The notes below the pieces were generated by a model, which did not search any database, was not told the origin of the DNA, and saw nothing but the letters and a program-made list of their open reading frames with translations. 33,197 nt of DNA from Chloroflexota bacterium (GTDB taxonomy: Bacteria > Chloroflexota > Limnocylindria > QHBO01): positions 1 through 33,197 of the forward strand of contig JAPSGM010000001.1 in the NCBI GenBank assembly GCA_031177555.1, read 5' to 3'. The position numbers and the translations under genes were made by a program. Shown in pieces: positions 872 through 26,595 of the stretch (its first letter is position 1; every line of letters starts with the position of its first letter).

Positions 872-1654
872 TTAGGCGTCGTTCTGAGGGGTGGGCAGCA
901 CTCCGCCGGGGCGTCGCTTGACGTAGTCGCCAAATCGGAAGTACTTCCAGTACACGCTGCGCACGGCGCGCGTCGCCTTCAGCAGCAGCTTGCTCCAGAG
1001 CGGGACCTTCACCGGTCCCCATGCGGGCGGGAACTGGTAGCCCCACTCTTCCATGTACGGGCCGAAGACCCACTTCGCGCGCCGAATGGCACGAGGTGTG
1101 AAGTACCCCGCGAAGTCCCGCTGAGCATCGCGTTCCGAGGTGGCGTTGACGACCGGCAATGGCCGAACCGGCTCGATGCCGATCCTGCGCAGTGTCTGAT
1201 CGAAGTCGGCGGCCAGCGACTCCACGCAGAGGATGGCATCCATCCGTTTGTGGTCCAACGCCGCCCAAGTGTCGTACGGCACCTTGTACCAGCGAAGCAG
1301 GAAGTCCTCGAAGCTCGCGTCGTGCTCCTGCACCCAGCGGTAGATCCGACGCTCCAGCCGGCCTGCCAGCGAGTTGCGGAGCGCGACACGCTCCGGCTCC
1401 GTAAACCGCCCGCGCCTGTCGTCCTTGAGGTGGACGAACCGCGTCACCGCGACGTCCAGCGGATTCCGGATCCCCGAAAAGGCGAAGTACGAGCGCTCGT
1501 CCTCCGACGCGATGCGCAGGAAGTCGCGATAGGTGGCGTGCTTCCTGAGGATGGGATGGCCGTCGTAGTGCTCGCGCAGCTCGCGGCTCACCGCCGTGGA
1601 CCCGGTGCGAGGCAGCTCCACGTAGACGTATCGGTACTTGTGGCTGATGATCAC
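872..1654 (-). CDS. Sulfotransferase, family-2 type (PAPS-dependent)
   Basis: This is the in-frame part of ORF 872-1882. I set the start to GTG 1654-1652, which forms a GTGA overlap with the stop of the upstream GT4 gene. VIISHKYRYVYVELPRTGSTAV carries the 5'-phosphosulfate loop and FAFSGIRNPLDVAVTRF carries the 3'-phosphate RNP block. Sequence upstream of 1654 in this frame is R/A/G/P-rich shadow. Confidence 0.85.
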   Translation of the reverse strand: MIISHKYRYVYVELPRTGSTAVSRELREHYDGHPILRKHATYRDFLRIASEDERSYFAFSGIRNPLDVAVTRFVHLKDDRRGRFTEPERVALRNSLAGRLERRIYRWVQEHDASFEDFLLRWYKVPYDTWAALDHKRMDAILCVESLAADFDQTLRRIGIEPVRPLPVVNATSERDAQRDFAGYFTPRAIRRAKWVFGPYMEEWGYQFPPAWGPVKVPLWSKLLLKATRAVRSVYWKYFRFGDYVKRRPGGVLPTPQNDA

Positions 1655-2901
1655 CGACTGGCTCCTGCGTTGCTCGGGCTGCCGCCCGGATGCCGGCCAT
1701 CGCGGGAGCGGGCCGCTCCGGACAGCTCGCGATGTAGATCGTAGACCCTGGCGAGCACCCGCCGCGCGGCCAGCGGCTCGGCAGCCCTGCGGCACTCGGC
1801 GCGCAGGCCATCGCGGGGAGTGCCCAGCAGCCACCGGATGCCCTCGGCGAGGGCATCGGCGGAGTGGTCGCGCGCCACCCATCCCGTCTTCCCGGTGCTG
1901 ACGACGGCGCTGATCTCGCCGACGGGGGTTGTGACCACCGGCAGCCCGCAGGCGAGCGCCTCGAGGCCCACGGTGGGGCCCGTCTCGAAGGCGGAGCTGA
2001 TCACCAACCCGTCGGCGGCGTTCATCAGCAGCGCCAGCTCGACGCGGGGCCGCGTGCCCAGGAAGCGAACTCGCGCCGCGCAGCCCAGCCGCTCCCCGAG
2101 CGCGTCCAGCTCGCCGCGCAGCGAGCCGTCGCCCGCGACCAGGAGCGTGGTGCCGCCGGCCTGCGTGGCACGCGCGAAGGCCTCGAGGAGCAGCTGCGGG
2201 CGCTTCTGGCCCTCAAGCCGGCCGGCGTACAGCAGGATCCGCTCCGTCGCCGGCACGCCGAGCTCGGCCTCAAGCCGTCCCCGAAGGTCGCGGCGCTGGC
2301 CCGCGTCGGTGGCCGCGAACACCTTGTCGTCGAACCAGTTCGGCAGGAACTCGATCCGGTCGGCCACCTCGCGGAACCGAGCTCGGTACCGTTCGGTGGC
2401 GATCCTGTTCACGACGTAGATGCGCTGCATGCGCCGGAATGCGACACCCTCCACCGCGTCCAGCGGCCGCCCCAGGCGGCGCCACCGGCTCTCCGATGCG
2501 GCGTCCGCGAGGTCCTCGCGGGTGAGATGCACCACCCGCCACATCGGGCCGTCATGCCCAAGCAGCGGAAGCGCGGTGGCCGGGCGGTGGAACTGGGTCA
2601 CGCGTCCGGCGGTCGGAATGCGCCGGTGGCGTGCGGCCAGGGCCGCGGTGAAGCGGAGAGCCAGCGGGACCACGCTCCGACCCGTGCCGCGGGACAGCCG
2701 GGCGATCGGCAGGAAATCCATGCGGCTCCCCTCGAAGTCGATCGCCTGCCAGCTGCCGAGCGGCCTGGTGGCGGCCATCCCGACCATGGCCACGCGAAAG
2801 TCGGATGGGGCGAACTTGACGAAGCTGCGGATGAAGGAGGCGATGCCGCCGATGCTCATGTCCTCCGGATCGGCGGGCAGGACGATGAGCGGCCGGATCA
2901 C
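1651..2901 (-). CDS. Glycosyltransferase family 4 (GT-B, Glycos_transf_1)
   Basis: 416-aa ORF. The GTG start at 2901 overlaps the stop of the Wzy-like gene (GTGA). The C-terminal half has LLYAGRLEGQKRPQLLLEAF and VISSAFETGPTVGLEALACGLPVVTT (E-x7-E). Confidence 0.9.
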   Translation of the reverse strand: MIRPLIVLPADPEDMSIGGIASFIRSFVKFAPSDFRVAMVGMAATRPLGSWQAIDFEGSRMDFLPIARLSRGTGRSVVPLALRFTAALAARHRRIPTAGRVTQFHRPATALPLLGHDGPMWRVVHLTREDLADAASESRWRRLGRPLDAVEGVAFRRMQRIYVVNRIATERYRARFREVADRIEFLPNWFDDKVFAATDAGQRRDLRGRLEAELGVPATERILLYAGRLEGQKRPQLLLEAFARATQAGGTTLLVAGDGSLRGELDALGERLGCAARVRFLGTRPRVELALLMNAADGLVISSAFETGPTVGLEALACGLPVVTTPVGEISAVVSTGKTGWVARDHSADALAEGIRWLLGTPRDGLRAECRRAAEPLAARRVLARVYDLHRELSGAARSRDGRHPGGSPSNAGASR

Positions 2902-4274
2902 GCGGTCGATGGCGATGTTTCCGGCGCCTCCGCCTGGTGCTCCGCGCCCGTCGTCGGGGGTGCGAGCAGGAAAGCCCCGACGAAGATGGCCGCCATGACG
3001 CTCGTGACCCCGACGGTGAAGAGGTTGTTCACGACCGCCTGGGCCTCGAAGGCGAGCACCGCGATGGCCCCGGCGATGTGGATCGCGGATCTGGCGTGGC
3101 GAGCCCGGAACAGCACCAGCAGCGCGAGGGCCGCGAGGCTGAGGTGCAGCAGCAGGGCGCCGGCCGCGCCGAGCACGCCCAGCTCAGCGCCGGCCAGGAG
3201 CACCGAGTTGTGCGCGCTGGCACCGGCACGACCCAGCGGCGTGTCGATGTAGCGCTCCGGCCAGTCGCGCATGGTCGCCAGCATCTCGCCGGTGCCGACG
3301 CCGGTCAGCGGGTGGTCGATCATGAGCAGGACGGCGGCATACCAGAGCGCCAGCCGGTTGGTGGCGTCGCTCACGAACCGCTCACCCAGCGGCGTCAGCA
3401 GCGTGATCACGATGCCGGCACCGATGATCGGGACGGCGAGGACCGGCCGCCTGGCCAGGAGCACGACGGCGACCACCCCCACCGCGGCCAGCCCGATCGG
3501 CGCGCGCGAGAAGGTCAACGTCAGCCCGATGATCTGCACGACCGCGCACGCCAGCCACACCAGCCGGGCGCGCCGCGTCCTGGCCTCGATGGCGAGCCCC
3601 ACGGTCAGGAGCAGCGAGACCATCAGGATCGCTCCGAGGAAGTTGGCCCCCACGCCGAGCGTGCCGGTGATGCGGCCGGGCACCTCGCCGAACAGCGCCG
3701 ACCTTGGCCCCTTCTCGCTGCCGAGGCCGATGTCGCCGGGCAGCGGCACCAGGAAGGCCACGATGCCGAAGACGGCCTCGAACGTCCCGACCACCGCGAC
3801 GGCGCTTGCCACGAACTCGGCGGCACCCTCGCGGCGGCTCACCGCCCAGGCCACCGCCACGGCGATAACGGCCAGCATGGCGAGCCGGCCGGAGCTGCGC
3901 ATCACCATCCGGAAGAAGTCGAAGGGTGACTCGGCCACCAGCAAACTGGAGATGACGCCGGCGACGAACAGGACCGCCAGGCCGATGGCGAGGCCGATCA
4001 GGACCTGCCGCTTGACCGCCAGCCGCGGAAAGTCCTCGAACGGAGCGAGGGCCAGCAGCAGCCCGACGAGGCCCACGATTGCCGGGATGTCGTCGAGGCT
4101 GAAGCCGAGCGTGATGTGCACGTTGGGCACCAGCGGTGTCATGGCCAGGACCAGCAGCGATCCCGCGAAGCGCCAGCCGAACCGGCGGGTGGTGATGATC
4201 GTCACGGCGACCGCCACCAGGGAGATGGCGATCGCGACTCCGGTGAGCGCCAGGAGCTCCCAGCTGAGGGTCAT
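2898..4274 (-). CDS. O-antigen ligase/polymerase-like membrane protein (Wzy_C domain), copy 1
   Basis: 458-aa polytopic ORF. TFSRAPIGLAAVG, IDHPLTGVGTGEM and SAHNSVLLAGAELGVLG match Wzy_C blocks. The ATG at 4274 lies 4 nt after the upstream stop. Confidence 0.85.
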   Translation of the reverse strand: MTLSWELLALTGVAIAISLVAVAVTIITTRRFGWRFAGSLLVLAMTPLVPNVHITLGFSLDDIPAIVGLVGLLLALAPFEDFPRLAVKRQVLIGLAIGLAVLFVAGVISSLLVAESPFDFFRMVMRSSGRLAMLAVIAVAVAWAVSRREGAAEFVASAVAVVGTFEAVFGIVAFLVPLPGDIGLGSEKGPRSALFGEVPGRITGTLGVGANFLGAILMVSLLLTVGLAIEARTRRARLVWLACAVVQIIGLTLTFSRAPIGLAAVGVVAVVLLARRPVLAVPIIGAGIVITLLTPLGERFVSDATNRLALWYAAVLLMIDHPLTGVGTGEMLATMRDWPERYIDTPLGRAGASAHNSVLLAGAELGVLGAAGALLLHLSLAALALLVLFRARHARSAIHIAGAIAVLAFEAQAVVNNLFTVGVTSVMAAIFVGAFLLAPPTTGAEHQAEAPETSPSTA

Positions 4275-4278
4275 CGGC

Positions 4279-5229
4279 TCATGCCGACCACGCGGCGAGG
4301 TCTCGGTCGATCAGCGTCTCCAGCCGGGCGACGTCATCGGCCAGTTCCGCGACGAGGCGAGCGCGGAGGTCCGGATCGATCGGCGGTCGCTGCTGATACC
4401 TGATGTTGGCACGCTTCATGAGACGCCAGGCGGCGTGGTGGAGCGGGCCCGGCAGCGCGTTCACGACGGTGCCCACGGCGCGGCCCTTGCGGACGCGCTG
4501 CAGCAGCGAGCTGCGAGCCACCTTGTTCTGGTTGACGACCGCGAAGTCCGGCTCGAAGCCGGTGCTCACCTCGAGGAATGACAGGACGTCGCGGTATGCG
4601 GTGCGGGCATCGGCGCTGAAGTCGTCGTAGAGGAGGACCTTCACGGCGTCGCGGCCGAAGGTCTCCAGGTAGCGCTCGACGTGTGCCGCATAGCGGGCGC
4701 AGGCGCGGTACTGCAGTCCCTCCGGCCTCCGAACGTCCGGCGGCAGGCGCCGTCCCTGCCGCCGGTCCTCCTCGGCATCGAGCGCCTGGGCGAAGTCCTC
4801 GACGTCCTCGTTGCCGGTGAAGAGCCAATGGCTGTGCAGCGAGTGGATCATCTCCACCGGATCGCGCAGCATGATGATGATCCGGGCGTCGGGGTCGAAG
4901 CGCCTGATCTCGGCGGCCGCGGTCCGCGAGTACAGGTACCACACCGTCGCCTCGCCCAGCCGCCGCTTCCCCCGTCCGGGCCCGAAGAGCTTCAGGTAGC
5001 TCGGCTCGTCGAGGAGCGGTGGCCGCTTGGTCAGGTCCGCCCCGAAGTACACCGGCTCCTTGCGATAGGGCATGAACACGTCCGGATGCTGTCGCAGGTA
5101 CTCGTACATGGCCGTGGTGCCGGATCGCGGCGCCCCGACGATGAAGAAGTTCGGCCTCGGATCCGCCACGTCCGTGGAGGCGAGGCCCAGGCCGCCTCGC
5201 GGCAGGCTCGATGCCTGGTCAGGATTCAT
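4279..5229 (-). CDS. Sulfotransferase-domain protein (heparan-sulfate-sulfotransferase-like fold)
   Basis: 316 aa. FFIVGAPRSGTTAMYEYL is the 5'-PSB P-loop and IIMLRDPVEMIHSLHSHW is the 3'-PB block. There is an ATGA overlap with the upstream stop (5226-5229). No TM helix or signal peptide. It is a paralogue of 9899-10828. Confidence 0.9.
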   Translation of the reverse strand: MNPDQASSLPRGGLGLASTDVADPRPNFFIVGAPRSGTTAMYEYLRQHPDVFMPYRKEPVYFGADLTKRPPLLDEPSYLKLFGPGRGKRRLGEATVWYLYSRTAAAEIRRFDPDARIIIMLRDPVEMIHSLHSHWLFTGNEDVEDFAQALDAEEDRRQGRRLPPDVRRPEGLQYRACARYAAHVERYLETFGRDAVKVLLYDDFSADARTAYRDVLSFLEVSTGFEPDFAVVNQNKVARSSLLQRVRKGRAVGTVVNALPGPLHHAAWRLMKRANIRYQQRPPIDPDLRARLVAELADDVARLETLIDRDLAAWSA

Positions 5230-5972
5230 CGGTCCGCCAGGAGCTGCACCAGGCCCGCGTAGTCCTCTGGCGTATCGATCTCATGCCACCACGTCTCCCC
5301 GATCTCGCAGCCCGTCAACGATCCGGTCGTCGCGGCCAGCTCGCTCACCAGATCGTGCCAGATGGCGCGCCCTGCGGATTTCGCCTCGCGCTCCACGAAG
5401 TCGGTCAGCAGCCCGTCGAACATGGCGCGCGCTTCCTCGCCGCAGGCCAGGAACAGGCCGGCGGACACGCCGTGGGTTCGTTCGTCGGCCAGCCCCTTGC
5501 CGACCGCGGCGACCGTGCCATCGCCGCGAAGCGAGACCCGCACGTCATCGGTCTCGGCCACCCGCCTCGAGAAGCCCAGGCGGAACCCGCCGGCGTCGAC
5601 CGACCCGACCGCGCGAAAGGCTTCCGGCCGGTAGTAGGTGTCGCCGTTGCCGATCATGATGTCGGCTGACGTGATGACGTCCCGCGCGGCCCACAGCGAC
5701 CAGATCGGGCCGTGCGAGGCGAAGTCGGGGTTGTAGCGCGTCTCGACCGCGCCCGCCCTGGCATGCCGCGCGACCTCCTGCTCAATCGCGTCGGAACAAT
5801 ACCCGGTGACGACCACGACGCGGCGCACGGCGCCCGACAGGTGCGCGTTGCGAAGGTTCTCGCCGAGCAGCGATCCGCCATCGGGCGTGGGGACCAGGGC
5901 CTTGGGGATCGGGCCCGTGACCGACGCCAGGCGGGTGCCCTGGCCGGCGGCGAGCAGAATGAGGTCCGTCAT
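5226..5972 (-). CDS. Sugar/alcohol-phosphate nucleotidyltransferase, LicC-like (probable cytidylyltransferase)
   Basis: 248 aa. LILLAAGQGTRL...PKALV is the nucleotide-binding signature. The YNPDFASHGPIWSLW block resembles phosphocholine-type cytidylyltransferases. There is an ATGA overlap with the stop of the TagF-like gene. Confidence 0.75.
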   Translation of the reverse strand: MTDLILLAAGQGTRLASVTGPIPKALVPTPDGGSLLGENLRNAHLSGAVRRVVVVTGYCSDAIEQEVARHARAGAVETRYNPDFASHGPIWSLWAARDVITSADIMIGNGDTYYRPEAFRAVGSVDAGGFRLGFSRRVAETDDVRVSLRGDGTVAAVGKGLADERTHGVSAGLFLACGEEARAMFDGLLTDFVEREAKSAGRAIWHDLVSELAATTGSLTGCEIGETWWHEIDTPEDYAGLVQLLADR

Positions 5973-7341: not shown

Positions 7342-8241
7342 CTAGCCCGATGCCGCCACGGGCATGCGCCAGCCGGGCAGCGGTCGCGTGAGGGTCTCGA
7401 CGTAGGCGATGTCCCGCTCGAAATGGGCCAGGAGCCGCTCCTGCAGCTGGGCGGGCATCGCAGGATACGCGGCCCTCTTCATGTTGCGCGCCTCGAGCGC
7501 ATTCCGCAGCCGGTGAGCGGGTCGTCGAACGAACCGCGGCAGGAAGCTCCAGCTGCGGTAGCGCGTGCCGGCGATGGCCCGATGCAGGAGTCGGCTGCTG
7601 GGGACGGCATGCGGGTTGTACTCCGCGTCGAACGACGGCAGGAACCCGTCGTCGACGCCCACGAAGCGGCAGATCCTGCGGTAGGTCTCGGGCGGATCGC
7701 TCCGCAGGTCGTCGTACAGGACGAGGTGCACGCGCTCGGGCCCCAGGGCATCGAGGTAACGGCGCACGTGGCGCTCGTAGCTGCTCATGTACAGCAGGTA
7801 GCGAAGGTCCGGGTGGTCCTCGACGACCTCCGAGAAGGGCGGCATCGGCCACCCGCGCTTCCAGTTGTGCCAGTAATGCGAGTACGCCCGCTCGACCGGC
7901 TGACGCAGCACGAAGATGACCTTGAGCCCGGGGACGTGCTTCTCCATCAGCTCGGGGCCGTCCAAGGCGCCGAGGTAGTGCGTGCTGGCTTCGCCACGCG
8001 CCAGGCAGTCCTCTCCCCCCTCGAACAGGCTCTCGTACCAGGCGATGCCCTGGCTGTACGTGTCCTCGCGCAACGGACCGATGATGCGCACGCCCGGCTC
8101 CGGAACATTAGCGTCGCGCGTGAGGAAGTGGGGTTCCTTCACGGGGCTCATCCAGACCTGCGGGTGAGCGTCGAGGAGGCGCCAGAGGGCCGTGGTCCCT
8201 GACTTCGGTGCTCCTCCGATCACGAAGGTCGGCAGGGTCAA
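7342..8241 (-). CDS. Sulfotransferase-domain protein
   Basis: 299 aa with a TTG start. FVIGGAPKSGTTALWRLL is the 5'-PSB block and IFVLRQPVERAYSHYWHN is the 3'-PB block. No TM helix or signal peptide. Confidence 0.88.
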   Translation of the reverse strand: MTLPTFVIGGAPKSGTTALWRLLDAHPQVWMSPVKEPHFLTRDANVPEPGVRIIGPLREDTYSQGIAWYESLFEGGEDCLARGEASTHYLGALDGPELMEKHVPGLKVIFVLRQPVERAYSHYWHNWKRGWPMPPFSEVVEDHPDLRYLLYMSSYERHVRRYLDALGPERVHLVLYDDLRSDPPETYRRICRFVGVDDGFLPSFDAEYNPHAVPSSRLLHRAIAGTRYRSWSFLPRFVRRPAHRLRNALEARNMKRAAYPAMPAQLQERLLAHFERDIAYVETLTRPLPGWRMPVAASG

Positions 8242-10828: not shown

Positions 10829-10892
10829 CGTGCCAGCCCGGGGGCTGTCAGACTAGCGCCGCCATTGGCGACGCGTGCGGAGGAACGTTTCG

Positions 10893-12203: not shown

Positions 12204-12219
12204 CCGGCCGCAGCCCGAC

Positions 12220-16636: not shown

Positions 16637-16661
16637 TCCGGCGCCGGCGCATACTCGGGCC

Positions 16662-20443: not shown

Positions 20444-21601
20444 TCAGGCGGCCGACCCCGGCGGCCGCTTGGCGCGGAGGCGCTCGTCGAGCGGCATGCC
20501 CGCCAGCAGGTCCAGGATGCGAGGGGCGGCACGGCCGTCGCCGTACGGCGACGTGCGTGACAGGCCGTCGCGGAATCGCGGCTCGATGGCGCGCCGGATG
20601 GCGTCGGCGACGGCGGCGGCGTCCGGCGGCGCGTCGATGACGTTGTCGCCGCGCGTGCGTCCCTCCTGCCGCCGCCCGACGTTCACCGCCGGGAGCCCCA
20701 GCAGCGGCGCCTCGATGATCGCGCTGGACGAGTTGCCGACCAGCGCCGCCGCCCCGCCCAGCAGGGTCGCGAACTCGGCGCGCGGCAGCGACGCCACCGC
20801 CCGGAGCGGCAGGTCGGCGCGCCGCAGGCGATCGATCATGGCGCGGCCGCCGGCATCGGCGTTGGGGAAGATGACCAGCGCCGGGAGCCCGACCGCGCGC
20901 ACGCCGTCCAGGGTAGCGTCGAGGTCCTGCGCGGCCCGCTCCGCGCCGACCGTCTCGGGGTGCTGCATCACCAGCAGGTACGCGCCGGCCGCCGGGAGGC
21001 CGTGCCGCGTGCGCAGCGCCCCGCGGTCGCCGCTCGCCTCCTCGCGCAGCCGGTCGAGTCCCGGCGCCCCGACGCGCCGGATGCGCCACGCCTCCTCGCC
21101 CATCGCCTCCAGGCGTCGAGCGGCGTCCTCGGTGGCCACCAGGTGCAGGTTCGCGATGCGCGTGACGAGATCCCGCACGGTGTCGTCCACGGCGCCGCGC
21201 GTCACCTCGCCGCCGTGCAGGTGCGCCACGGCGACGCCGGCGTGCAGGGCGGCGAGGCCGGCGGCCAGCTGCTCCCCGCGGTCGCCGAGCAGCAGCAGCC
21301 AGTCCGGGCGCTCCCCGGCGACGACCGGCGCCATGCCCATGACCGCCTGCCCGATGGCCGCGGCCATCTCGACCCGGCTGTCGCCGGCCGGCGTGCAGGG
21401 CACCTCGGCGGCGATCGCGTGGCCGGAGCGGCGCACCTCCTCGACCGTGCGGCCGAAACGGGGGTCGAGGTGCATCGCCGTCACCAGCAGGCTTGCGTCG
21501 AACCCTGGAGCGCGGCGGCGTGCCTCGTCCAGGACCGGCAGCCACACGCCGAAGTCGGCGCGGGAGCCCGTCACCGCCATGAGACGCAGCGTGGCGGTCA
21601 T
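20444..21601 (-). CDS. neuC: Hydrolysing UDP-sugar 2-epimerase (NeuC/LegG family)
   Basis: 385 aa. It carries LMAVTGSRADFG, VAHLHGGEVTRGAVDD and LVGNSSSAIIEAPLLGLPAVNVGRRQEGR. The ATG overlaps the upstream stop (ATGA). Confidence 0.88.
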   Translation of the reverse strand: MTATLRLMAVTGSRADFGVWLPVLDEARRRAPGFDASLLVTAMHLDPRFGRTVEEVRRSGHAIAAEVPCTPAGDSRVEMAAAIGQAVMGMAPVVAGERPDWLLLLGDRGEQLAAGLAALHAGVAVAHLHGGEVTRGAVDDTVRDLVTRIANLHLVATEDAARRLEAMGEEAWRIRRVGAPGLDRLREEASGDRGALRTRHGLPAAGAYLLVMQHPETVGAERAAQDLDATLDGVRAVGLPALVIFPNADAGGRAMIDRLRRADLPLRAVASLPRAEFATLLGGAAALVGNSSSAIIEAPLLGLPAVNVGRRQEGRTRGDNVIDAPPDAAAVADAIRRAIEPRFRDGLSRTSPYGDGRAAPRILDLLAGMPLDERLRAKRPPGSAA

Positions 21602-23067
21602 GCCGCCGAGCGCCGCGGGTTCCCGCGCGCCAGCGAGAGCATCAGCCGCGCCGCGCGCTCCGAGGCGCGTCCGTCCAGCGCTCCCAGCCGCTCCGCCGCG
21701 ACCCGGCGCGCGCGCTCGACGGCCCTCCGCCTCGCAGCCTCGGCCCGCAGCTCGGATGCGGCTCGGGCGGCCGACGCCTCGTCCGATGCAGCCACGGCCA
21801 GGCCGTCCGCCGCGAAGTCGACCGGCGCCACGCCGCCCGGGTTGACGGCAATGGCCGGGATGCCGGCCACGGCCGCCTCGAACACCGCGTTCGACCAGCC
21901 GGTCACCAGCAGCGCCGCGCCGGCGATCTCGCCATGCAGGCCCGTCCCGGCGGCCAGCCTCACCGGCACTTCGGTCCCTGGCATGCCGGCGACGAGGCCG
22001 GCTGCCGTGCCGGACCGCTCCGCCGGGTGGGGCGCCACCACCAGCTCGCCGGCCCCGAACGCACCGGCCGCCGCGACCGCCGCGCGGAAGCAGGCCGCCA
22101 GGACGCCGTGGGTCATGGCGCCGGTGGGATACTGGGCGGCGAACACCACGCGCCGCTCGCCCAGCGAGGCCGCGGCGCCGACGGCGCCGAGCCGAACCAG
22201 CGGGTCGAAGCGCGGCGCGCCGATCTCGACGATCCGCTCCGGCGGAATCCCCGCGGCGCGCAGCACGGCCGTGGCGCGAGGCCCGTAGGTCGCCATGCAG
22301 TCGTACGCCGCCCCCTCGATGGCCGTCGCGTCGGCCGCCTCGGCGTGCGGCAAGTCCAGGCTGGGAATGCCGCGGCGACGCGCCACCTCGGGCAGCAGGC
22401 GCGCCCAGGTCCCGATCTCGTCGAGCCCCGCCAGCAGGCCGGGGCCCCAGCGGCGGGCGACCGAGAGCAGCGCCGCCGCGCCGAGCTCGATCCGTCCCGC
22501 CTCGTCGGCGGCGACCTGGCGCAGCTCGGCGGCCCGCGCCTCCCCGACCCGGCGCGCCCAGGCGCCGCCGGCCGCGGCCAGGGCCCGCGCGACGATCGGC
22601 CCATGCGCCATGGCGCGCAACGCGAGCGACGGTTCCATGAGCTCGACCAGCCGCGGCGCCACCGCGTGCGCCGGCGCGACCGCCGCGGCCCGACCGACAC
22701 GAATCAGCGCCAGCGACTCGCCGGCGGTCGACTGGAGCTCCGCCTCGACCTGGGCGAGGACCGGGTAGTGGGTCGGCTCGCGCACCAGCACGACCAGCGG
22801 CGCGCCACCGGTCCGCGGCAGCCGCCAGGCCATCAGCCCCACGCCCGCGGCGGCGGCGGGCCGCAGGACGGCGGCCGCTCCGGAGGCGAGCCGGCCGAGC
22901 GAGCCCTTCTCGGCACGGCGCTCGTCCCGGATCGCGAAGAACAGCTGCTGCTCCAGCGCCCCGCCGAGCTCCACGCCCTCGAACCGGATCGCGCCCGGGG
23001 ATGCCCGCCGCAGGTCCGTCACGAGCTCGCGCGCCTGGTCCCGCGCGGCGGCGGGATCGGGGCTCAC
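21598..23067 (-). CDS. Unclassified GT-B-like protein; candidate CMP-nonulosonate (legionaminic-acid) transferase
   Basis: Only the C-terminal 489 codons of the 855-aa track ORF are free of overlap with better-supported genes. I set the start to GTG 23067, which forms a GTGA overlap with the stop of the neuD-like gene. The stop overlaps the neuC start. I cannot name a family. IGAPRFDPL, VVAPHPAERS and LVTGWSNAVFEAAVAGIPAI resemble the HP-motif and nucleotide-binding blocks of cytidine-nucleotide-dependent GT-B enzymes (TagF, KpsS/KpsC, bacterial sialyltransferases). Confidence 0.6.
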   Translation of the reverse strand: MSPDPAAARDQARELVTDLRRASPGAIRFEGVELGGALEQQLFFAIRDERRAEKGSLGRLASGAAAVLRPAAAAGVGLMAWRLPRTGGAPLVVLVREPTHYPVLAQVEAELQSTAGESLALIRVGRAAAVAPAHAVAPRLVELMEPSLALRAMAHGPIVARALAAAGGAWARRVGEARAAELRQVAADEAGRIELGAAALLSVARRWGPGLLAGLDEIGTWARLLPEVARRRGIPSLDLPHAEAADATAIEGAAYDCMATYGPRATAVLRAAGIPPERIVEIGAPRFDPLVRLGAVGAAASLGERRVVFAAQYPTGAMTHGVLAACFRAAVAAAGAFGAGELVVAPHPAERSGTAAGLVAGMPGTEVPVRLAAGTGLHGEIAGAALLVTGWSNAVFEAAVAGIPAIAVNPGGVAPVDFAADGLAVAASDEASAARAASELRAEAARRRAVERARRVAAERLGALDGRASERAARLMLSLARGNPRRSAA

Positions 23068-23696
23068 GTCGCCATCTGGCGCGCCGGGACGCCGGCCACC
23101 CGCGCGCCGGCCGGCACGTCGTCGACGACCATGGCGCCCCCGGCTACGACCGCCCACTCGCCGATGCGGCAGCCCTCCCGGACGGCGGCGCCGATGCCGA
23201 CGAAGGCGCCCTCGCCCAAGGTCACGCGCCCGGCCAGGTGCGCGCCGGGTGCCACCGTGGCGTGCGGGCCGACCACGTCGTCGTGGTCCACGCTGGCCCC
23301 CGTGTTGACGACCGCATCGGCGCCAACCCTGGCCGCAAGACCGATGACGGCGCCGGCGCAGACCATCGCGCCCGGCTCGACGGACGCGCCGGCCAGCAGG
23401 TGGGCGGTGGGATGGACGGCGGCGACCGGCGTCAGGCCCAGGGCCAGGCAGCGCTCGAACGCCTCGCGGCGGGCGTGGTTGTCGCCCAGCGCCACGACGA
23501 AGCGCGTATCGCCCGACGCCCACTCCGGCTGGCCGGCCAGGGAGCCGAGGACCGGCAGCCCCTCGACCTCGCGCGCGACCGACGCCGGAACTGGGCCGGC
23601 TTCCACGAAGCCGCCCGGCGCCTCTCCGGCGGCGCGCAGGATCTCCAGGACGACGCGCCCGTGGTCGCCCGCCCCGACGATGACGAGGGGGCTCAT
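23064..23696 (-). CDS. neuD: Hexapeptide-repeat sugar N-acetyltransferase (NeuD/PglD/LegH family)
   Basis: 210 aa, starting at ATG 23696 with an ATGA overlap with the neuA-like stop. LVIVGAGDHGRVVLE forms the N-terminal domain. It is followed by left-handed beta-helix repeats (GASVEPGAMVCAGAVIG, VGADAVVNTGASVDHD, GAFVGIGAAV). Confidence 0.85.
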   Translation of the reverse strand: MSPLVIVGAGDHGRVVLEILRAAGEAPGGFVEAGPVPASVAREVEGLPVLGSLAGQPEWASGDTRFVVALGDNHARREAFERCLALGLTPVAAVHPTAHLLAGASVEPGAMVCAGAVIGLAARVGADAVVNTGASVDHDDVVGPHATVAPGAHLAGRVTLGEGAFVGIGAAVREGCRIGEWAVVAGGAMVVDDVPAGARVAGVPARQMAT

Positions 23697-24352
23697 CGGC
23701 GGCCGGCCCGCCAGGCGCGCCGCGCCGCCTGCAGGTCCGCCTCCGAGTCCACGTCGATTGCCGCGGGGCCGCCGGTGACGTGGGCCGCGGGGCACTCGTC
23801 GAGCAGCCGTCCCTCGGCGAGCAGATGTCGGCGCGTCGCGTACACGCCGCCGGTGATGCGGACCGCCTCGGCGTCCGGCGCGGCGGTACGCGTGAACCGT
23901 CCGGCCGACAGCCAGCCGGCGGCGCCGGCCGGGAGGTCGAGCGGCGCGACGCTGACCGCCGAGCGCACCGCCGGGTCGTCGAGCAGGGCGACGACGGCGT
24001 CGATCTCGGCGCCGGGCCGCAGGGGCGTGGTGGCCTGCAGCGTGAGGACGACGTCCACCGGCTCGCCGCGCTCCTCCAGCCACGAGACCGCGTGCCGGAT
24101 GACGGGCAGCGTGGGGGTGTCGTCCGCGGCGAGCTCGGCCGGTCGCAGGAACGGGGCTTCGGCACCGGCCCGGGCGGCGGCGCGGGCGATCGCCGGATCG
24201 TCGGTGGAGACGATGACCCTGTCGACCCGCCGTGCCTCGCGCGCCGCGCGGATCGTGTGCGCGATCAGCGGCTGCCCGCCGAGCAGCCGCAGGTGCTTCC
24301 GCGGCAGCCGCTTCGAGCCGCCCCGGGCCGGGATGATCGCCACCGTCGCCAT
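23693..24352 (-). CDS. neuA: Acylneuraminate/nonulosonate cytidylyltransferase (CMP-sugar synthetase, NeuA/LegF family)
   Basis: Starts at ATG 24352 inside ORF 23693-24637 and encodes 219 aa. It carries MATVAIIPARGGSKRLPRKHLRLLGGQPLIAHTI and VIVSTDD. Confidence 0.88.
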   Translation of the reverse strand: MATVAIIPARGGSKRLPRKHLRLLGGQPLIAHTIRAAREARRVDRVIVSTDDPAIARAAARAGAEAPFLRPAELAADDTPTLPVIRHAVSWLEERGEPVDVVLTLQATTPLRPGAEIDAVVALLDDPAVRSAVSVAPLDLPAGAAGWLSAGRFTRTAAPDAEAVRITGGVYATRRHLLAEGRLLDECPAAHVTGGPAAIDVDSEADLQAARRAWRAGRR

Positions 24353-24360
24353 CGGGCTGC

Positions 24361-24366
24361 ATTCTA
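24361..24366 (-). promoter_or_regulatory. Putative -10 hexamer TAGAAT for the neuA-led nonulosonate operon (leaderless-type spacing)
   Basis: On the minus strand the sequence reads TAGAAT, then 8 nt (GCAGCCCG), then ATG at 24352. There is no Shine-Dalgarno in between. Confidence 0.4.
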
Positions 24367-24400
24367 GGGCCGCCCCCCGCCCCGCCCCGCCGCGGGCCGA

Positions 24401-24406
24401 TAGAAT
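24401..24406 (+). promoter_or_regulatory. Putative -10 hexamer TAGAAT for Wzy-like copy 2 (leaderless-type spacing)
   Basis: On the plus strand the sequence reads TAGAAT, then 7 nt (CCGGCCG), then GTG at 24414. It mirrors the hexamer at 24361-24366. Confidence 0.4.
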
Positions 24407-24413
24407 CCGGCCG

Positions 24414-25946
24414 GTGAGCAGCCCCTCCCCCGCCGGCCGGCCGTGCCGACGCGGCGCGACGGTGTCGGCCGGCACGCTCATCGCCCTCGGCGTCCTGGCA
24501 GCGCTGCTGCTCGTGCTGGTCGTCGGCGCGCGGGTCGCGACGCCGCTGTTCCTCGCGTCCGGCGCCGGGATCCTCCTGGTGGTCGCCTTTCTGGGCCACC
24601 GCCATCCACGGTCCGCCCTGGTCGCCGTCGTGCTCATGCCGATCGTCGACCGCTACCTCGTGGGCCTGCTGGTCCCGGCGTCGCTGCGCACGACCACCGG
24701 CTTCCTCTCGGAGGCGCTACTGGTGGTGGTCGCGGCGAGCATCGGGCTCAGGGCATGGCGGCAGGGATCGCTCCTCCCGGCGCTCCGGCATCCGGCCGTC
24801 GTCCTCGTGGCGGCCTTCGCCCTGGTCGCCGCGGCGTCGGCGGCGCTGAACGGCGTGCCGCCGCCGATCGCGGTGGCCGGCATCGGCTTCACCATCGAGG
24901 CCGTCGCGCTGTTCGTGCTGCCGCGCATGATCGGCTTCGACATCGGGCAGGCCAGGCTGGCCTTCATGGGCTTCACGGGCATGGCCCTGCTGGCGGCGGG
25001 GCTGGCGCTGGCGCAGGTGCTCCTGGACGCCGACGTCCTCGGCCTGCAGTCGTTCACCGGGCGCTTCAGCGAGGGCCATCGCGTGGCCGCCTTCCTGGTC
25101 AACCCGAACATGCTGGGGGCCGTGCTGGCGATGGCCATCCCGATGCCGCTGCTGGCCGCGGTCCGCACCGACGCCCGCCGGCGGCGGGTGCTGTATGGCG
25201 CCGTGACCTTCGTGCTGGCGCTGGCGCTGCTGTACACCTTCTCGCGGGGAGCCTGGCTCGGGCTGGCGCTGTCCGCTGCGGTCCTGGCGGTCGCGGTGGA
25301 CCGGCGCGCGCTGGCCGGGCTGGCCCTGGTGGGGGTCCTCGTCATCGCCACCGCCCTGGTGCTCCCGCGCCACGTCCTGGACCCCGATGCCGGCGACGTC
25401 GAGTTCGACCTGGCGGCGGCCATCCTCGGCCGGCTGGACACCCTCGCGGAGGGGACCGACCTGCGGCTCCAGTTCGTGAGCAACGCGTCGCCGATCATCG
25501 CCGATCACCCGATCGTGGGCGCGGGGCCGGGACGCTACGGCGGCGCGGTGGCCTGGCGCTTCGGGAGCCCCCTCTACGACGACTACACCGATGGGTCGGT
25601 CCCCGAGGGCCGAACCGTCGACAACTTCTGGCTCCACCTGCTCGTCGAGGTCGGCGTGATCGGCACGCTGCTCTTCGCCGCGGCCTTGGCGGCCGCCACC
25701 TGGGGCGCGCTCGCCGCCGCACGGGCGGCTGACGGCTGGGGGCGGGTCCTGCCCGCGGCCGCCGCCGCGATCGCCATCGTCATCGCCATCGACTCGCTGG
25801 CCGAGATGCTGCTGGAGGGCAACACGACGTCGTTCGCGGTGTGGTTCTTCCTGGGGTTGACCTCGGCCCTCGTGGCCCGATCGGCCGAGGGCGGGGCGGC
25901 AGGCGCCGCCGGGGATCTCGCGGCTAGTACGCTCCGCGCCCGCTGA
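24414..25946 (+). CDS. O-antigen ligase/polymerase-like membrane protein (Wzy_C domain), copy 2
   Basis: This is the 3' part of the 981-aa track ORF. I set the start at GTG 24414, upstream of the first TM helix GTLIALGVLAALLLVLVV. GTG 24462 is an alternative start. It carries LLYTFSRGAWLGLA, ADHPIVGAGPGRYG and VDNFWLHLLVEVGVIG. Confidence 0.82.
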   Translation: MSSPSPAGRPCRRGATVSAGTLIALGVLAALLLVLVVGARVATPLFLASGAGILLVVAFLGHRHPRSALVAVVLMPIVDRYLVGLLVPASLRTTTGFLSEALLVVVAASIGLRAWRQGSLLPALRHPAVVLVAAFALVAAASAALNGVPPPIAVAGIGFTIEAVALFVLPRMIGFDIGQARLAFMGFTGMALLAAGLALAQVLLDADVLGLQSFTGRFSEGHRVAAFLVNPNMLGAVLAMAIPMPLLAAVRTDARRRRVLYGAVTFVLALALLYTFSRGAWLGLALSAAVLAVAVDRRALAGLALVGVLVIATALVLPRHVLDPDAGDVEFDLAAAILGRLDTLAEGTDLRLQFVSNASPIIADHPIVGAGPGRYGGAVAWRFGSPLYDDYTDGSVPEGRTVDNFWLHLLVEVGVIGTLLFAAALAAATWGALAAARAADGWGRVLPAAAAAIAIVIAIDSLAEMLLEGNTTSFAVWFFLGLTSALVARSAEGGAAGAAGDLAASTLRAR

Positions 25947-26595
25947 GCACCGCACCCACCGTGCGGGCCAGGATGCCCGCATCCATGGCCAGGCTCCGCT
26001 CGTTGACGTAGCGGACGTCGAACTGGACGCGCTCCTCGAAGGTGCGGTCCGCCCGACCGTTCACCTGCCACAGCCCGGTGATGCCGGGGCGAACGCGCAG
26101 GATGAGCTCCGCCTCCGGGCGGCCTTCTAGCTCGCCGGGGAAGTACGGCCGCGGCCCGATCAGGCTCATCTCGCCGGTCAGCACGTTGACCAGCTGGGGC
26201 AGCTCGTCGAGCGACATGCGGCGCAGGATGGCGCCCACCCGCGTGCGGCGCGGATCGTCGCGCAGCTTGCGGCGCTCGCCGTACTCCAGCGCCCACTCCT
26301 CGTCGACGGTCAGGAGCTCCTCGAGGTGGTGGTGGCTCCCGTCGCGCATCGTGCGGAACTTCAGGACGACGATGGGCTTGCCGAAGCGGCCCATGCGGTG
26401 GCACTTGTAGATGATCGGCAGGCCCGTGTCGATCCAGATCGCCACCGCGATGATCACGAAGAACGGCAACAGGATCGCGAGCAGGACAGCCGACCCGACA
26501 ATGTCAACGAGGCGCTTGGTGAACCAGTAGAGGAGCTCTCCGAGCGAGGCCGGGCGCGTCGAGGCAACGGCTTGTTGCTGCGAGATCTGCTCCAA
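25924..26595 (-). CDS. Small monotopic undecaprenyl-phosphate sugar-phosphotransferase (Bac_transf, PglC-like initiating PGT)
   Basis: 223 aa. The TTG start at 26595 has AGGAG 6 nt upstream. There is one N-terminal hydrophobic helix, LLAILLPFFVIIAVAIWI. It also carries KFRTM and DELPQLVNVLTGEMSLIGPRP. Confidence 0.9.
   Translation of the reverse strand: MEQISQQQAVASTRPASLGELLYWFTKRLVDIVGSAVLLAILLPFFVIIAVAIWIDTGLPIIYKCHRMGRFGKPIVVLKFRTMRDGSHHHLEELLTVDEEWALEYGERRKLRDDPRRTRVGAILRRMSLDELPQLVNVLTGEMSLIGPRPYFPGELEGRPEAELILRVRPGITGLWQVNGRADRTFEERVQFDVRYVNERSLAMDAGILARTVGAVLSGRGAY

Follow-up and report, generated by a model that had tools for sequence, protein, structure and literature searches.

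A mosaic locus from an uncultured soil Chloroflexota bacterium encodes enzymes for a predicted very acidic surface polymer

We analysed a 25.7 kb interval (positions 872–26595) of an uncultured member of Ca. Limnocylindria (Chloroflexota) from soil, lying in a 33-kb window, that is, the whole stretch of 33,197 nucleotides. Because the DNA has a GC content of 68–79%, genes were called by third-position GC, giving 23 tightly packed genes (g02–g24), whose outer limits are the g02 stop (872) and the g24 (PGT) start (26595). Family assignment of all 23 genes used Pfam, NCBIfam and PDB searches (Table 1). All of the functions listed in an earlier note on this DNA were recovered where it had placed them, except that its fourth sulfotransferase (g02) scored below curated cut-offs. 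The same note had seen no unrelated genes in between, which was incorrect: the inorganic pyrophosphatase g15, missing from its list, sits between the LCP and NeuB genes. The genes form three co-directional packed blocks (g10–g02, g11–g15 and g22–g16), and at nine junctions between co-directional neighbours start and stop overlap by 4 nt, suggesting an operon-like organization. A GGDEF protein is encoded nearby.

Table 1. Genes of the interval and a neighbouring LCP gene, with predicted products
Gene	Positions	Strand	Predicted product
g02	872–1654	-	Probable Sulfotransfer_2-like fourth sulfotransferase; 260 aa, soluble, GTG start
g03	1651–2901	-	GT4 glycosyltransferase
g04	2898–4274	-	Wzy_C polytopic membrane protein (Wzy1), candidate polymerase
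g05	4279–5229	-	PAPS-type sulfotransferase
g06	5226–5972	-	Candidate sugar- or polyol-phosphate nucleotidylyltransferase; 4-nt overlap with g07
g07	5969–7228	-	TagF-like CDP-alcohol phosphotransferase
g08	7342–8241	-	PAPS-type sulfotransferase, heparan-sulfate-sulfotransferase-like
g09	8354–9865	-	Wzx, MOP flippase
g10	9899–10810	-	PAPS-type sulfotransferase
g11	10875–12203	+	AlgD-like NDP-sugar 6-dehydrogenase
g12	12220–14370	+	AT3-SGNH (OafA-type) O-acyltransferase
g13	14406–15635	+	GT4 glycosyltransferase; start uncertain (14367, 14406 or 14424)
g14	15632–16636	+	LCP (LytR-CpsA-Psr) glycopolymer phosphotransferase
g15	16662–17186	+	Inorganic pyrophosphatase
g16	17183–18253	-	NeuB/LegI-type nonulosonate synthase
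g17	18257–19291	-	Soluble UDP-GlcNAc 4,6-dehydratase
g18	19279–20421	-	DegT-type 4-aminotransferase
g19	20444–21601	-	NeuC-type hydrolysing 2-epimerase
g20	21598–23067	-	Unclassified GT-B protein, candidate CMP-nonulosonate transferase
g21	23064–23696	-	PglD/NeuD-type N-acetyltransferase
g22	23693–24481	-	CMP-nonulosonate synthetase; start 24481 or 24352
g23	24513–25946	+	Second Wzy_C membrane protein (Wzy2)
g24	25924–26595	-	Small PglC/WbaP-C-type polyprenyl-phosphate hexose-1-phosphate transferase
g28	30546–31940	-	Second LCP protein, outside 872–26595

Three of the four sulfotransferases counted by the earlier note (g05, g08 and g10) were over the Pfam cut-off. g05 matched Sulfotransfer_3 (57.6 bits) and Sulfotransfer_1 (53 bits), carries the motifs GAPRSGTT and RDPVEMIHS, and is 45% identical with its paralogue g10 (Sulfotransfer_3, 63.5 bits), whose 60–66% identical homologues adjoin Wzx/DH in the related contigs L084, L087 and L166. 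For g08 (Sulfotransfer_3, 71.7 bits) the first PDB match was 3rnl (126 bits), followed by heparan sulfate 3-OST and NDST. The fourth, g02, scored 17 bits in Pfam, under every curated cut-off. A weak Sulfotransfer_2 match was found in 26 of the 34 members of its family, its sequence contains PRTGST and RNPLDVAVT motifs, and in L165 and L166 its homologues have PAPS genes and sulfotransferases as neighbours. The best 17 Foldseek matches of its AF2 model (pLDDT 86) in the PDB were all sulfotransferases, each of them weak (best E 2e-3, TM 0.3–0.4). Fold, family, motifs and neighbourhood thus suggest that g02 is probably a Sulfotransfer_2-like fourth sulfotransferase. The predicted TagF-like phosphotransferase with its own nucleotidyltransferase was borne out, as g07 matched Glyphos_transf (149 bits) and, in the PDB, TagF (3l7i), TarL (8va1) and Cps3D (8qoy), and its stop overlaps the start of g06. 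The latter matched NTP_transf_3 and NTP_transferase (top PDB match 4jd0, E 6e-9), making it a candidate sugar- or polyol-phosphate nucleotidylyltransferase by family, which does not fix the substrate.

The two expected GT4 enzymes are g03 (Glycos_transf_1, 112 bits; 72% identical in L163/L164 with gene order unchanged) and g13 (Glyco_trans_4_4 and Glyco_trans_1_4), the best-conserved glycosyltransferase of the locus (73–84% identical across nine related contigs). Also confirmed were the PglC-like initiating PGT, g24 (Bac_transf, 203 bits), a 223-residue protein with a single N-terminal hydrophobic hairpin, and Wzx with two Wzy-like proteins: g09 (Polysacc_synt_3, 298 bits; NCBIfam MOP flippase, 244 bits; 12 hydrophobic segments), g04 (Wzy_C, 44 bits; 79% identical in L163/L164) and g23 (Wzy_C, 60.6 bits), the last two each with at least ten hydrophobic segments. 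In L001, L082 and the P0005 contig, g23 is always flanked by GlnA and the Leg block. g11 carries all three UDPG_MGDP_dh domains and, in agreement with its earlier description as AlgD-like, had AlgD as its top PDB match (1mfz, 389 bits, compared with 232 for the nearest UDP-glucose dehydrogenase); it probably converts GDP-mannose into GDP-ManA. The OafA-SGNH acyltransferase g12 indeed has both domains (Acyl_transf_3, 104 bits; SGNH, 113 bits).

All six genes of the proposed legionaminic-type pathway were recovered, with NeuB, NeuC and NeuD/PglD over NCBIfam cut-offs. g16 matched NeuB (297 bits) and TIGR03569 (402.6; cut-off 399.65), with PseI under its cut-off at 289; g17 matched Polysacc_synt_2 (324 bits), with the PseB model at 312 against a cut-off of 408. 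The remaining matches were DegT_DnrJ_EryC1 for g18 (390 bits), TIGR03568 for g19 (338; cut-off 236), PglD_N, Hexapep and TIGR03570 for g21 (189; cut-off 161) and CTP_transf_3 for g22 (83 bits), whose L081 counterpart is called as 262 aa. The nonulosonate is probably of the legionaminic-type 5,7-diacetamido class, the exact epimer not being fixed by sequence. g20 gave no Pfam, NCBIfam or PDB sequence match, solved sialyltransferase structures included, but its high-confidence AF2 model (pLDDT 93.3) has a GT-B fold (TM 0.5–0.65), as the note's unclassified GT-B would. It adjoins NeuB-type genes in all seven contexts, and by gene neighbourhood only we regard it as a candidate nonulosonate transferase.

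The LCP ligase gene was verified as g14 (LytR_cpsA_psr, 101 bits), which has a single N-terminal TM segment and matches TagV, TagU, MsrR and Cps2A in the PDB, aligning with them at the PRD and YARxR..D..R..RQQ motifs. The adjacent g15 (Pyrophosphatase, 173 bits) is a conserved anchor gene among relatives. A second LCP protein, g28 (LytR_cpsA_psr, 109 bits), whose 57% identical homologue adjoins a dehydrogenase in L089, possibly acts on the same polymer as g14. GlnA homologues 84–90% identical are labelled Limnocylindria, Limnocylindrales or Chloroflexota, and the named close relatives of GlnA, g02 and g20 are from Ca. Limnocylindria/Limnocylindrales, Chloroflexota or soil metagenomes, with the one exception of a Nocardioidaceae MAG in which g20 has a homologue. 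Among genomes the best match was a Chloroflexota MAG sharing the gene order, and L001 is syntenic. This placement agrees with the monoderm host supposed in the note, and an LPS O-antigen is unlikely because the literature describes the phylum as monoderm, lacking LPS genes and possessing LCP proteins.

Synteny searches, a check that the earlier note had proposed, showed that modules recur repeatedly among relatives. The kept backbone is Wzx-DH-GT4-PPase...GlnA, with variable sulfotransferase/TagF and Leg cassettes; Wzx/DH-(OafA)-GT4-(LCP)-PPase is conserved in at least ten contigs, and TagF-NTP-ST-Wzy-GT4-g02 forms a conserved block of 65–80% identity in L163/L164. Judged from sequence, related clusters recur in relatives and the locus is a mosaic. 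Sulfotransferase clusters adjoin CysD, CysN and APS kinase in L165, L166 and L169, with sulfate permease and DHH phosphoesterase in the first two. In L165 and L169 a single locus also includes Leg genes along with Wzx and sulfotransferases, together with a g02-like gene (L165) or a g20-like gene (L169). Sulfation is thus credible, since sulfotransferase clusters adjoin PAPS-synthesis genes in three relatives, two of them with Leg genes.

Taken together, the operon-like packing and the recurring modules favour reading the interval as a mosaic cell-surface glycan locus with a Gram-positive-type Wzx/Wzy capsule or secondary-wall-polymer pathway, to which we give about an even chance. The encoded enzymes are predicted to make a very acidic surface polymer that combines sulfate and phosphate with uronic acid and a sialic-acid-like sugar. 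Against this reading, neither a PCP/Wzz chain-length regulator or tyrosine-kinase gene nor PAPS-synthesis genes were found in the window. For the pathway, the gene families are those described above, and we infer the order of steps and the substrates. The small PGT g24 would place a sugar-1-phosphate on undecaprenyl phosphate, and the GT4 enzymes g13 and g03 would lengthen the repeat unit on the cytoplasmic face, one of them probably adding mannuronic acid from GDP-ManA made by g11. The next addition to the unit, by g20, would probably be a legionaminic-type 5,7-diacetamido nonulosonate, which g17, g18, g21, g19 and g16 would make from UDP-GlcNAc and g22 would activate. The TagF-like g07 would then attach a phospho-alcohol from an NDP-alcohol donor supplied by g06, and soluble g05, g08, g10 and probably g02 would sulfate the lipid-linked unit with PAPS. 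After flipping by Wzx g09, a Wzy_C protein would polymerize the unit, g12 would O-acylate it outside the membrane, and g14 and/or g28 would take the polymer off undecaprenyl pyrophosphate and attach it to peptidoglycan. The sulfotransferases, glycosyltransferases and Leg enzymes lack a clear TM segment, which fits this proposal, as do the hydrophobic segments of Wzx and the Wzy proteins and the single TM segment of the LCP.

We infer that all of these functions meet on a single polymer. The earlier note had likewise assigned five functions to one polymer; the genes are present, but a single polymer is only a proposal, as the locus is a mosaic and its cassettes also occur apart. The locus may instead make two or more glycans, the GlnA-proximal cassette (PGT g24, Wzy2 g23, Leg genes and g20) giving a nonulosonate glycan and the left cassette (Wzx, Wzy1, sulfotransferases, TagF-like and GT4 genes, with a PGT encoded elsewhere) a sulfated, phosphorylated mannuronate polymer, or one may be grafted on the other, for which the lactococcal rhamnan/PSP wall polysaccharide offers a comparison. 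We consider this rather unlikely, although several observations point to it. There is one Wzy_C gene per cassette; the two are only 29% identical over 156 aa, and each moves with its own cassette in relatives. The cassettes are found separately: L001 has the Leg block with no sulfotransferases within 9 kb, L090/L091 have DH-GT4-LCP-PPase without the Leg block and with a replacement cassette that brings its own flippase, and L166 has sulfotransferases without Leg genes. The GC content rises to 76–79% at the Leg block, compared with 65–73% in the remainder. A large second PGT of the WbaP type lies beside the PAPS genes in L165, L166 and L169, and therefore a second PGT may lie off this contig. 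However, the 33-kb contig holds a single Wzx and a single PGT, in L165 and L169 the Leg genes are contiguous with Wzx and the sulfotransferases, with one PGT each within the ~21 kb recovered, and single-polymer O-antigen or capsule loci are also expected to shuffle modules.

On the single-polymer reading, the product would be peptidoglycan-linked rather than a capsule/EPS or protein glycan. g14 retains the motifs of TagT/U/V-type peptidoglycan ligases and overlaps the preceding GT4 gene by 4 nt, an LCP gene is kept at its position in L090 and L091, and g28 lies close to the locus. These points make it improbable that the product is an EPS/capsule, either released or bound only loosely, or an O-glycan on an S-layer or surface protein, with a Wzy_C protein or an LcpA-like LCP as ligase/oligosaccharyltransferase. 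Such a product would be in keeping with the Wzy_C family including O-antigen ligases and O-oligosaccharyltransferases, the weak match of g23 to the NCBIfam 'O-glycosylation ligase' model, the nearby GGDEF gene, the sulfated bacterial polymers so far described being EPS or CPS, and the ability of an LCP enzyme, Actinomyces oris LcpA, to glycosylate protein (PMC6381275). Although known bacterial sulfotransferase targets include glycolipids, Nod factors and glycopeptide antibiotics, and Teg12 and Teg14 are among the weak fold matches of g02, it is highly improbable that the sulfotransferases act on a lipid, peptide or small molecule and merely adjoin the glycan locus, as their genes are interspersed among those for Wzx, Wzy, GT4 and TagF, where stops overlap starts, this arrangement recurs in L084, L087, L163–L166 and L169, and the solved structures closest to them are of carbohydrate (heparan sulfate) sulfotransferases.

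The earlier statement that no equivalent has been described was too strong, since streptococcal capsules, synechan xss and Actinoplanes wps-1 each match part of the locus, and each feature has a described precedent. The cps loci of Streptococcus agalactiae and S. suis contain neuABCD, the LCP gene cpsA and the PGT CpsE, which starts synthesis on undecaprenyl phosphate. As in those monoderm hosts, synthesis here is predicted to begin with a PGT acting on undecaprenyl phosphate and to proceed by flipping through Wzx and polymerization by Wzy, and nonulosonate synthesis and LCP genes lie inside the locus; the sialylated, Wzy-built streptococcal capsules are anchored to peptidoglycan by LCP (PMC10148854, PMC7831098). 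Unlike them, it belongs to a Chloroflexota host, lacks the CpsBCD tyrosine-kinase/chain-length module, is predicted to use a Leg-route sugar rather than Neu5Ac, and has a candidate transferase (g20) without a sequence match to solved sialyltransferases; its TagF-like phosphotransferase, its AlgD-like dehydrogenase and its three or four sulfotransferases are additions.

Synechan xss of Synechocystis PCC 6803 is likewise a Wzx/Wzy-type locus, with two sulfotransferases of different families interleaved with glycosyltransferases, and sulfation of the repeat unit was inferred to precede export (PMC8205485). Its host, however, is a cyanobacterium with a diderm envelope that exports through PCP/OPX and releases the EPS, and xss lacks the LCP, nonulosonate, TagF-like and uronate dehydrogenase genes present here, where there are three or four sulfotransferases per about four or five transferases. 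Actinoplanes missouriensis wps-1 is a Wzx/Wzy cluster of a monoderm host, with one heparan-sulfate-type and one Gal/GlcNAc-type sulfotransferase, paralleling g05/g08/g10 and the Sulfotransfer_2-like g02, and its sulfated product is, as here, a prediction (PMC13390465). The terms 'LytR' and 'LCP' occur nowhere in that paper, and its accessible text mentions no nonulosonate or TagF-like genes, all of which have counterparts here, and ties wps-1 to the sporangium matrix, unlike this locus (PMC13390465).

Wzy-dependent pneumococcal/Cps3D-type capsules share the pairing of Glyphos_transf with a dedicated nucleotidyltransferase, giving phospho-polyol on or within a non-teichoic polysaccharide, and Cps3D is a PDB match of g07; unlike them, this window has no polyol-phosphate synthesis gene. 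OafA/WcjE-type O-acetylation is also common to pneumococcal capsules and this locus. Classical wall teichoic acid shares the TagF-family phosphotransferase and the LCP ligase and is likewise an anionic polymer of the wall (predicted here), whereas the window lacks a TagO-type (MraY-family) PGT, TagA, the TagB primase and the TagGH ABC exporter, and export here would be by Wzx/Wzy rather than TagGH. By analogy, the polymer may work like wall teichoic acid in its charge role, outside that pathway.

Genes were called from third-position GC, followed by translation and Pfam/NCBIfam scans; the window has a GC content of 68–79%, because of which spurious frames swamp ORF lists. The interval of interest carries 23 genes (g02–g24) in five transcription blocks. 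Nine junctions between adjacent co-directional genes of the interval are 4-nt stop/start overlaps, and the widest gap between neighbours is 113 nt. A sigma-70 promoter and terminator scan of the window performed no better than shuffled sequence, with one promoter-like site upstream of g24 against 0.4 expected, and the operon structure is therefore read from gene spacing only. Separate scans for Rfam families and tRNAs gave no matches.

Coordinates of the features discussed, on the window or on the relative's contig named
Feature	Contig	Position (nt)	Strand
Interval with g02–g24	window	872-26595	
Block g10 to g02	window	10810 to 872	minus
Block g11 to g15	window	10875 to 17186	plus
Block g22 to g16	window	24481 to 17183	minus
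Single-gene block g23	window		plus
Single-gene block g24	window		minus
GTG start of g02	window	1654	
g05 (sulfotransferase)	window	4279-5229	
g10 (sulfotransferase)	window	9899-10810	
127-nt stretch shared by g05 and g10	window	5029-5155 and 10658-10784	
Linker repeat of g14	window	15790-15856	
g15 (inorganic pyrophosphatase)	window	16662-17186	
PucR-type HTH gene by GlnA	window	28299-29312	
g28 (second LCP) and g29 (GGDEF)	window	30546-33188	
Sulfotransferase cluster with adjoining PAPS genes	L165	10801-17918	
Sulfotransferase cluster with adjoining PAPS genes	L166	10804-20334	
Sulfotransferase cluster with adjoining PAPS genes	L169	167-7437	
Cassette neighbouring the shared genes	L001	12537-21044	
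g20-family gene	L168	4032-5465	

The earlier note had listed a set of polymer-building functions for this interval, with no unrelated genes in between. All of the listed functions were found, the fourth sulfotransferase (g02) being the one that scored below every curated cut-off, but the continuity is broken by g15, an inorganic pyrophosphatase gene (173 bits) lying between the LCP gene g14 and the NeuB gene g16. This gene is a conserved anchor, 70–87% identical and at the same junction on the contigs of eight relatives (L001, L082, L088, L090–L092, L095 and L166). It is probably a housekeeping gene, and PPi removal by its product would favour nucleotide-sugar synthesis.

For the assembly functions, g24 encodes a polyprenyl-phosphate sugar-1-phosphate transferase (PGT; Bac_transf, 203 bits) that matched WbaP_sugtrans (257 bits, C-terminal part only), and g09 a Wzx of the MOP family (Polysacc_synt_3, 298 bits) with 12 hydrophobic segments. 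Both g04 (Wzy1, 44 bits) and g23 (Wzy2, 61 bits) contain Wzy_C, a domain that does not tell a polymerase from a ligase or O-oligosaccharyltransferase. The GT4 genes are g03 and g13, and g12 encodes an AT3-SGNH protein. Neither a PCP/Wzz chain-length regulator nor a CpsCD tyrosine kinase was detected among the 29 window genes by Pfam family, though such a gene may lie outside the contig, and no GDP-mannose synthesis gene lies in the window. Comparison of the dehydrogenase g11 with the PDB gave 389 bits to AlgD (1mfz) and 232 bits to the nearest UDP-glucose dehydrogenase, bearing out its description as AlgD-like. The UDP-glucose dehydrogenase models that ranked top in NCBIfam all scored below their cut-offs, and with AlgD by far the best solved relative this assignment was rejected.

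The product of g07 matched Glyphos_transf (149 bits) and, in the PDB, TagF, TarL and Cps3D, and its gene is overlapped by 4 nt by that of the nucleotidyltransferase g06, whose best PDB match (4jd0) was weak. Pfam and NCBIfam scans of the 29 window genes found no TagO-type PGT, TagA, TagB primase or TagGH ABC exporter; a classical wall teichoic acid was rejected on their absence.

The LytR_cpsA_psr domain was recognized in g14 (101 bits) and in g28 (109 bits). Alignment of g14 with TagV, TagU, MsrR and Cps2A showed that the PRD and YARxR..D..R..RQQ motifs are conserved, and the protein has one hydrophobic segment (residues 13–31) followed by a Pro/Thr-rich linker, as expected of an N-terminal membrane anchor that places the catalytic domain outside the cytoplasm. 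The DNA for this linker contains a 31-nt direct repeat with a 36-nt period, 97% identical. The closest homologues of GlnA, encoded to the right of the interval, were 84–94% identical, and the named ones (84–90%) all belonged to Ca. Limnocylindrales, Ca. Limnocylindria, Chloroflexota or soil metagenome. The named homologues of g02 came from the same taxa, as did those of g20 except for one Nocardioidaceae MAG. The best genome match (L001), a MAG deposited as 'uncultured Chloroflexia bacterium', has a GlnA of 83% identity and shares with the window the order PucR-GlnA-Wzy-g20-Leg genes-PPase-PGT, where Leg genes stands for the nonulosonate genes g16–g19, g21 and g22 and PPase for g15. The class has a mean GC content of 68.9% (PMC10608941). 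Chloroflexota, including the founder group of Limnocylindria, are without genes for LPS and outer-membrane machinery and have been inferred to be monoderm (PMC6169038), and LCP proteins are found across the phylum, Dehalococcoides excepted (PMC2632651). The lineage placement together with this literature therefore argues against a diderm with a WaaL-dependent O-antigen, the alternative that the earlier note had set against its own reading; an LPS O-antigen was rejected in view of a lineage free of LPS and the presence of LCP genes. A monoderm host is thus supported from lineage and literature; the envelope genes of this genome lie off the contig.

Just to the right of the interval lie the second LCP gene g28 and the GGDEF diguanylate cyclase gene g29, and LCP and GGDEF genes also adjoin CysMet-PucR-GlnA in L082. 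These neighbours hint at control of the locus by c-di-GMP. The codon-position GC signal of the PucR-type gene is blurred, its limits are uncertain and ORFs of similar length overlap it on the other strand.

Three sulfotransferases, g05, g08 and g10, scored 57.6, 71.7 and 63.5 bits respectively against a curated Pfam cut-off of 27, and carry the motifs GAP(K/R)xGTT (5'-PSB) and R(D/Q/N)Pxx (3'-PB). The one compared with the PDB, g08, was nearest to the bacterial enzyme 3rnl and to heparan sulfate 3-OST/NDST. g05 and g10 are paralogues with 45% amino-acid identity, and a 127-nt stretch of the two genes is 80% identical in DNA; a repeat search of the window returned only this paralogy and the g14 linker duplication. 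The 260-residue product of g02, the start of which was set by comparison with two homologues (P0114 and P0115), reached 17 bits against the Pfam cut-off of 27 and gave no NCBIfam match and nothing usable in a PDB sequence search. Its family comprises more than 385 unannotated proteins; of 34 members, 26 matched Sulfotransfer_2 weakly. Its predicted structure (pLDDT 86) had sulfotransferases as all 17 best PDB fold matches, weak ones (E at best 2e-3, TM 0.3–0.4), and it carries PRTGST and RNPLDxxxT motifs; these and its neighbouring genes agree with such a function. We consider it likely that g02 is a fourth sulfotransferase.

A Pfam scan found no PAPS-synthesis genes in the window. In three relatives (L165, L166 and L169), sulfate adenylyltransferase (CysD and CysN) and APS kinase genes adjoin sulfotransferase clusters, accompanied by a sulfate permease gene in L165, a sulfatase gene in L169 and, in both L165 and L166, a DHH/DHHA1 phosphoesterase gene that may encode a pAp phosphatase. 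All three relatives also have a large WbaP-type PGT, and L165 and L169 have Leg genes in addition. Glycan sulfation is strongly supported at the level of the lineage, and at least three independent loci combine genes for sulfate with those for nonulosonate.

Among the nonulosonate genes, the NeuB/LegI-type synthase (TIGR03569, 402.6 against a cut-off of 399.65), the NeuC-type hydrolysing 2-epimerase (TIGR03568, 338 against 236) and the PglD/NeuD N-acetyltransferase (TIGR03570, 189 against 161) all passed their models. The soluble 4,6-dehydratase (Polysacc_synt_2, 324 bits), the 4-aminotransferase (DegT, 390 bits) and the CMP-sugar synthetase (CTP_transf_3, 83 bits) did not reach the equivalog thresholds set for the PseB, PseC/LegC and PseF models, PseB being the best-scoring model for the dehydratase. 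From established knowledge of the pathway, we take these six genes to be the set for legionaminic acid by the UDP-GlcNAc route. A pseudaminic acid pathway was rejected, as NeuC and NeuD stand in place of PseG and PseH and the score for the PseI model was below its cut-off; sequence does not tell apart the epimers that the product might be (Leg, 4eLeg, 8eLeg, Aci or Pse). The GC content of g16 and g19–g22 is 76–79%, that of g17 and g18 is 72–73%, and the other genes have 65–73%, with g02 at only 65%; this step at the Leg block is consistent with cassette exchange. A 6.1-kb Logan contig (L081, DRR783046) encodes proteins identical to those of g18–g24.

The 489-residue protein g20 has 113 homologues. 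It gave no sequence match in Pfam, NCBIfam or the PDB, and a profile search of the PDB with its alignment returned only marginal 2-epimerase matches. Its AlphaFold model, built from an alignment of 44 homologues (pLDDT 93.3, pTM 0.92), showed a GT-B fold in Foldseek, with TM scores of 0.5–0.65 to UDP-GlcNAc 2-epimerases and MGD1, and 2-epimerases and generic GT-B proteins made up the top 50. In agreement with the earlier description of g20 as an unclassified GT-B protein, it has this fold in the model and no match to a curated family, and members of its family matched Epimerase_2 and DUF6716 ('putative glycosyltransferase') weakly. Neither the sequence searches nor the Foldseek top 50 gave a close match to a characterised nonulosonate transferase. 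In all seven contexts examined (the window, L001, L082, the P0005 contig, L168, L169 and L170), g20 genes lie within or beside a NeuB-type set, which, from gene neighbourhood only, makes g20 the leading candidate for a transferase of the CMP-nonulosonate. Its invariant D-E-x-G and H-P residues resemble the D/E-D/E-G and HP motifs of sialyltransferases, and we treat this as a lead only. The homologue in L168, the actinobacterial (Nocardioidaceae) MAG GCA_013696065.1, is 41% identical and adjoins NeuB, GT2, Wzx and GT4 genes; the family thus reaches beyond Chloroflexota.

To compare the locus with its relatives, all window proteins were searched by tblastn against the fetched loci, and gene tables were examined. 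A backbone with Wzx divergent from DH-(AT3-SGNH)-GT4-(LCP)-PPase, DH being g11, and with GlnA-PucR-CysMet-...-LCP-GGDEF on the far side, is 69–92% identical across more than ten soil-metagenome contigs. The left cassette (TagF-NTP-ST-Wzy1-GT4-g02-GSDH, ST being sulfotransferase) is found as one block with 65–80% identity in L163 and L164; among the remaining relatives, L084 and L087 carry fewer sulfotransferases and L166 a pyruvyltransferase instead. The GlnA-proximal cassette of Wzy2, Leg genes and g20 occurs in L001, L082 and the P0005 contig, and is replaced in L090 and L091 by GT4, Wzy_C and flippase genes without Leg genes. In these last two contigs an LCP gene lies between GT4 and PPase as in the window, and in L089 an LCP2-like gene abuts the dehydrogenase gene. 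The neighbouring cassette of L001 holds RmlA-, RmlB- and RmlD-like genes, NTP_transf_3, an Fe-ADH_2 (glycerol-1-phosphate-dehydrogenase-like) gene, two CDP-alcohol phosphatidyltransferase-family genes and one GT4 gene; it is a different route to phosphodiester groups on a Leg-containing glycan.

The best-supported model for the locus is a Gram-positive-type Wzx/Wzy pathway. The PGT g24 would start the unit, and the GT4 enzymes g13 and g03, g20 and the TagF-like g07 would build a repeat unit of roughly four or five residues, with ManA, a Leg-type sugar and a phospho-alcohol among its components. The sulfotransferases, which are soluble and have no TM segments, would sulfate the unit in the cytoplasm; Wzx would flip it and Wzy polymerise it, the AT3-SGNH protein would O-acylate the polymer outside the membrane, and LCP would transfer it to peptidoglycan. 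Gene families, topologies, packing and recurrence were observed. The order in which the steps occur is inferred, as are the sugars that serve as acceptors, which NDP-alcohol is used, what g20 does, where the polymer is attached and, most of all, that a single polymer carries every group.

The main rival is that the locus makes two glycans, or a single product composed of two: the two Wzy_C genes are divergent and each travels with its own cassette, the cassettes also exist separately, and in relatives a second PGT stands beside the sulfation genes. We regard this as a real possibility, yet a doubtful one. An EPS or a protein glycan in place of a wall polymer appears improbable, and it is very improbable indeed that the sulfotransferases act on non-glycan substrates. 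As for the overall interpretation in the earlier note, the monoderm host, the Wzx/Wzy-plus-LCP logic and sulfation gained support from taxonomy and synteny, and a single polymer with all five functions and its linkage to peptidoglycan remain predictions.

Among bacteria other than cyanobacteria, sulfated polysaccharides still count as rare in the literature (PMC8205485, PMC13390465). The locus and its relatives offer candidate genes for sulfated and sialylated glycoconjugates in an abundant uncultured soil lineage, namely heparan-sulfate-type and g02-type sulfotransferases in Wzx/Wzy loci beside PAPS genes, and a nonulosonate transferase family. We propose tentatively, and would not expect to hold in every part, that Limnocylindria, which are widespread uncultured monoderms of soil and freshwater, as a rule cover their peptidoglycan with a heavily sulfated polymer that has a Leg-type cap, mannuronate and phosphodiester, and in which a repeat of some four or five residues bears as many as four sulfates. 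Such a polymer would be a bacterial analogue of the sulfated and sialylated glycans of animals, with g02 representing a new clade of carbohydrate sulfotransferases and g20 a new GT-B family of CMP-nonulosonate transferases found also in some Actinomycetota. If true, the envelopes of Chloroflexota would include sulfate esters bound to the wall, which would also contribute to the organic sulfur of soil, and the enzymes could serve in making sulfated glycans. The basis is metagenomic sequence, and loci for polysaccharides are well known to bring genes together in many combinations. Three features merit follow-up by a glycobiologist: the dense set of sulfotransferases, their repeated association with PAPS genes in Limnocylindria, and two enzyme families that lack annotation.

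Sulfotransferases inside a Wzx/Wzy locus are known from the xss cluster for synechan (PMC8205485), and the sulfated CPS loci of Vibrio and Cobetia also have them. They are likewise predicted for the actinomycete Wzx/Wzy cluster wps-1 (PMC13390465). Sialylation and sulfation have been measured together in environmental EPS, in glycoconjugates of biofilm matrices, and the sulfotransferase pathways responsible were stated to be a gap (PMC10483923); a search of the literature on sulfated or teichulosonic polymers of monoderm walls gave mainly algal papers. Non-teichoic capsules with TagF-like enzymes have a precedent in Cps3D, and the locus differs from that of classical wall teichoic acid in missing TagO, TagA, TagB and TagGH. 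The functionally closest system is the sialylated, Wzy-built and LCP-anchored capsule of S. agalactiae and S. suis. In comparison, the present locus is without a CpsBCD module, uses a Leg-route sugar and an unclassified transferase, and adds sulfation, a phospho-alcohol and ManA. The combination and its host are new, whereas the kind of system is already known.
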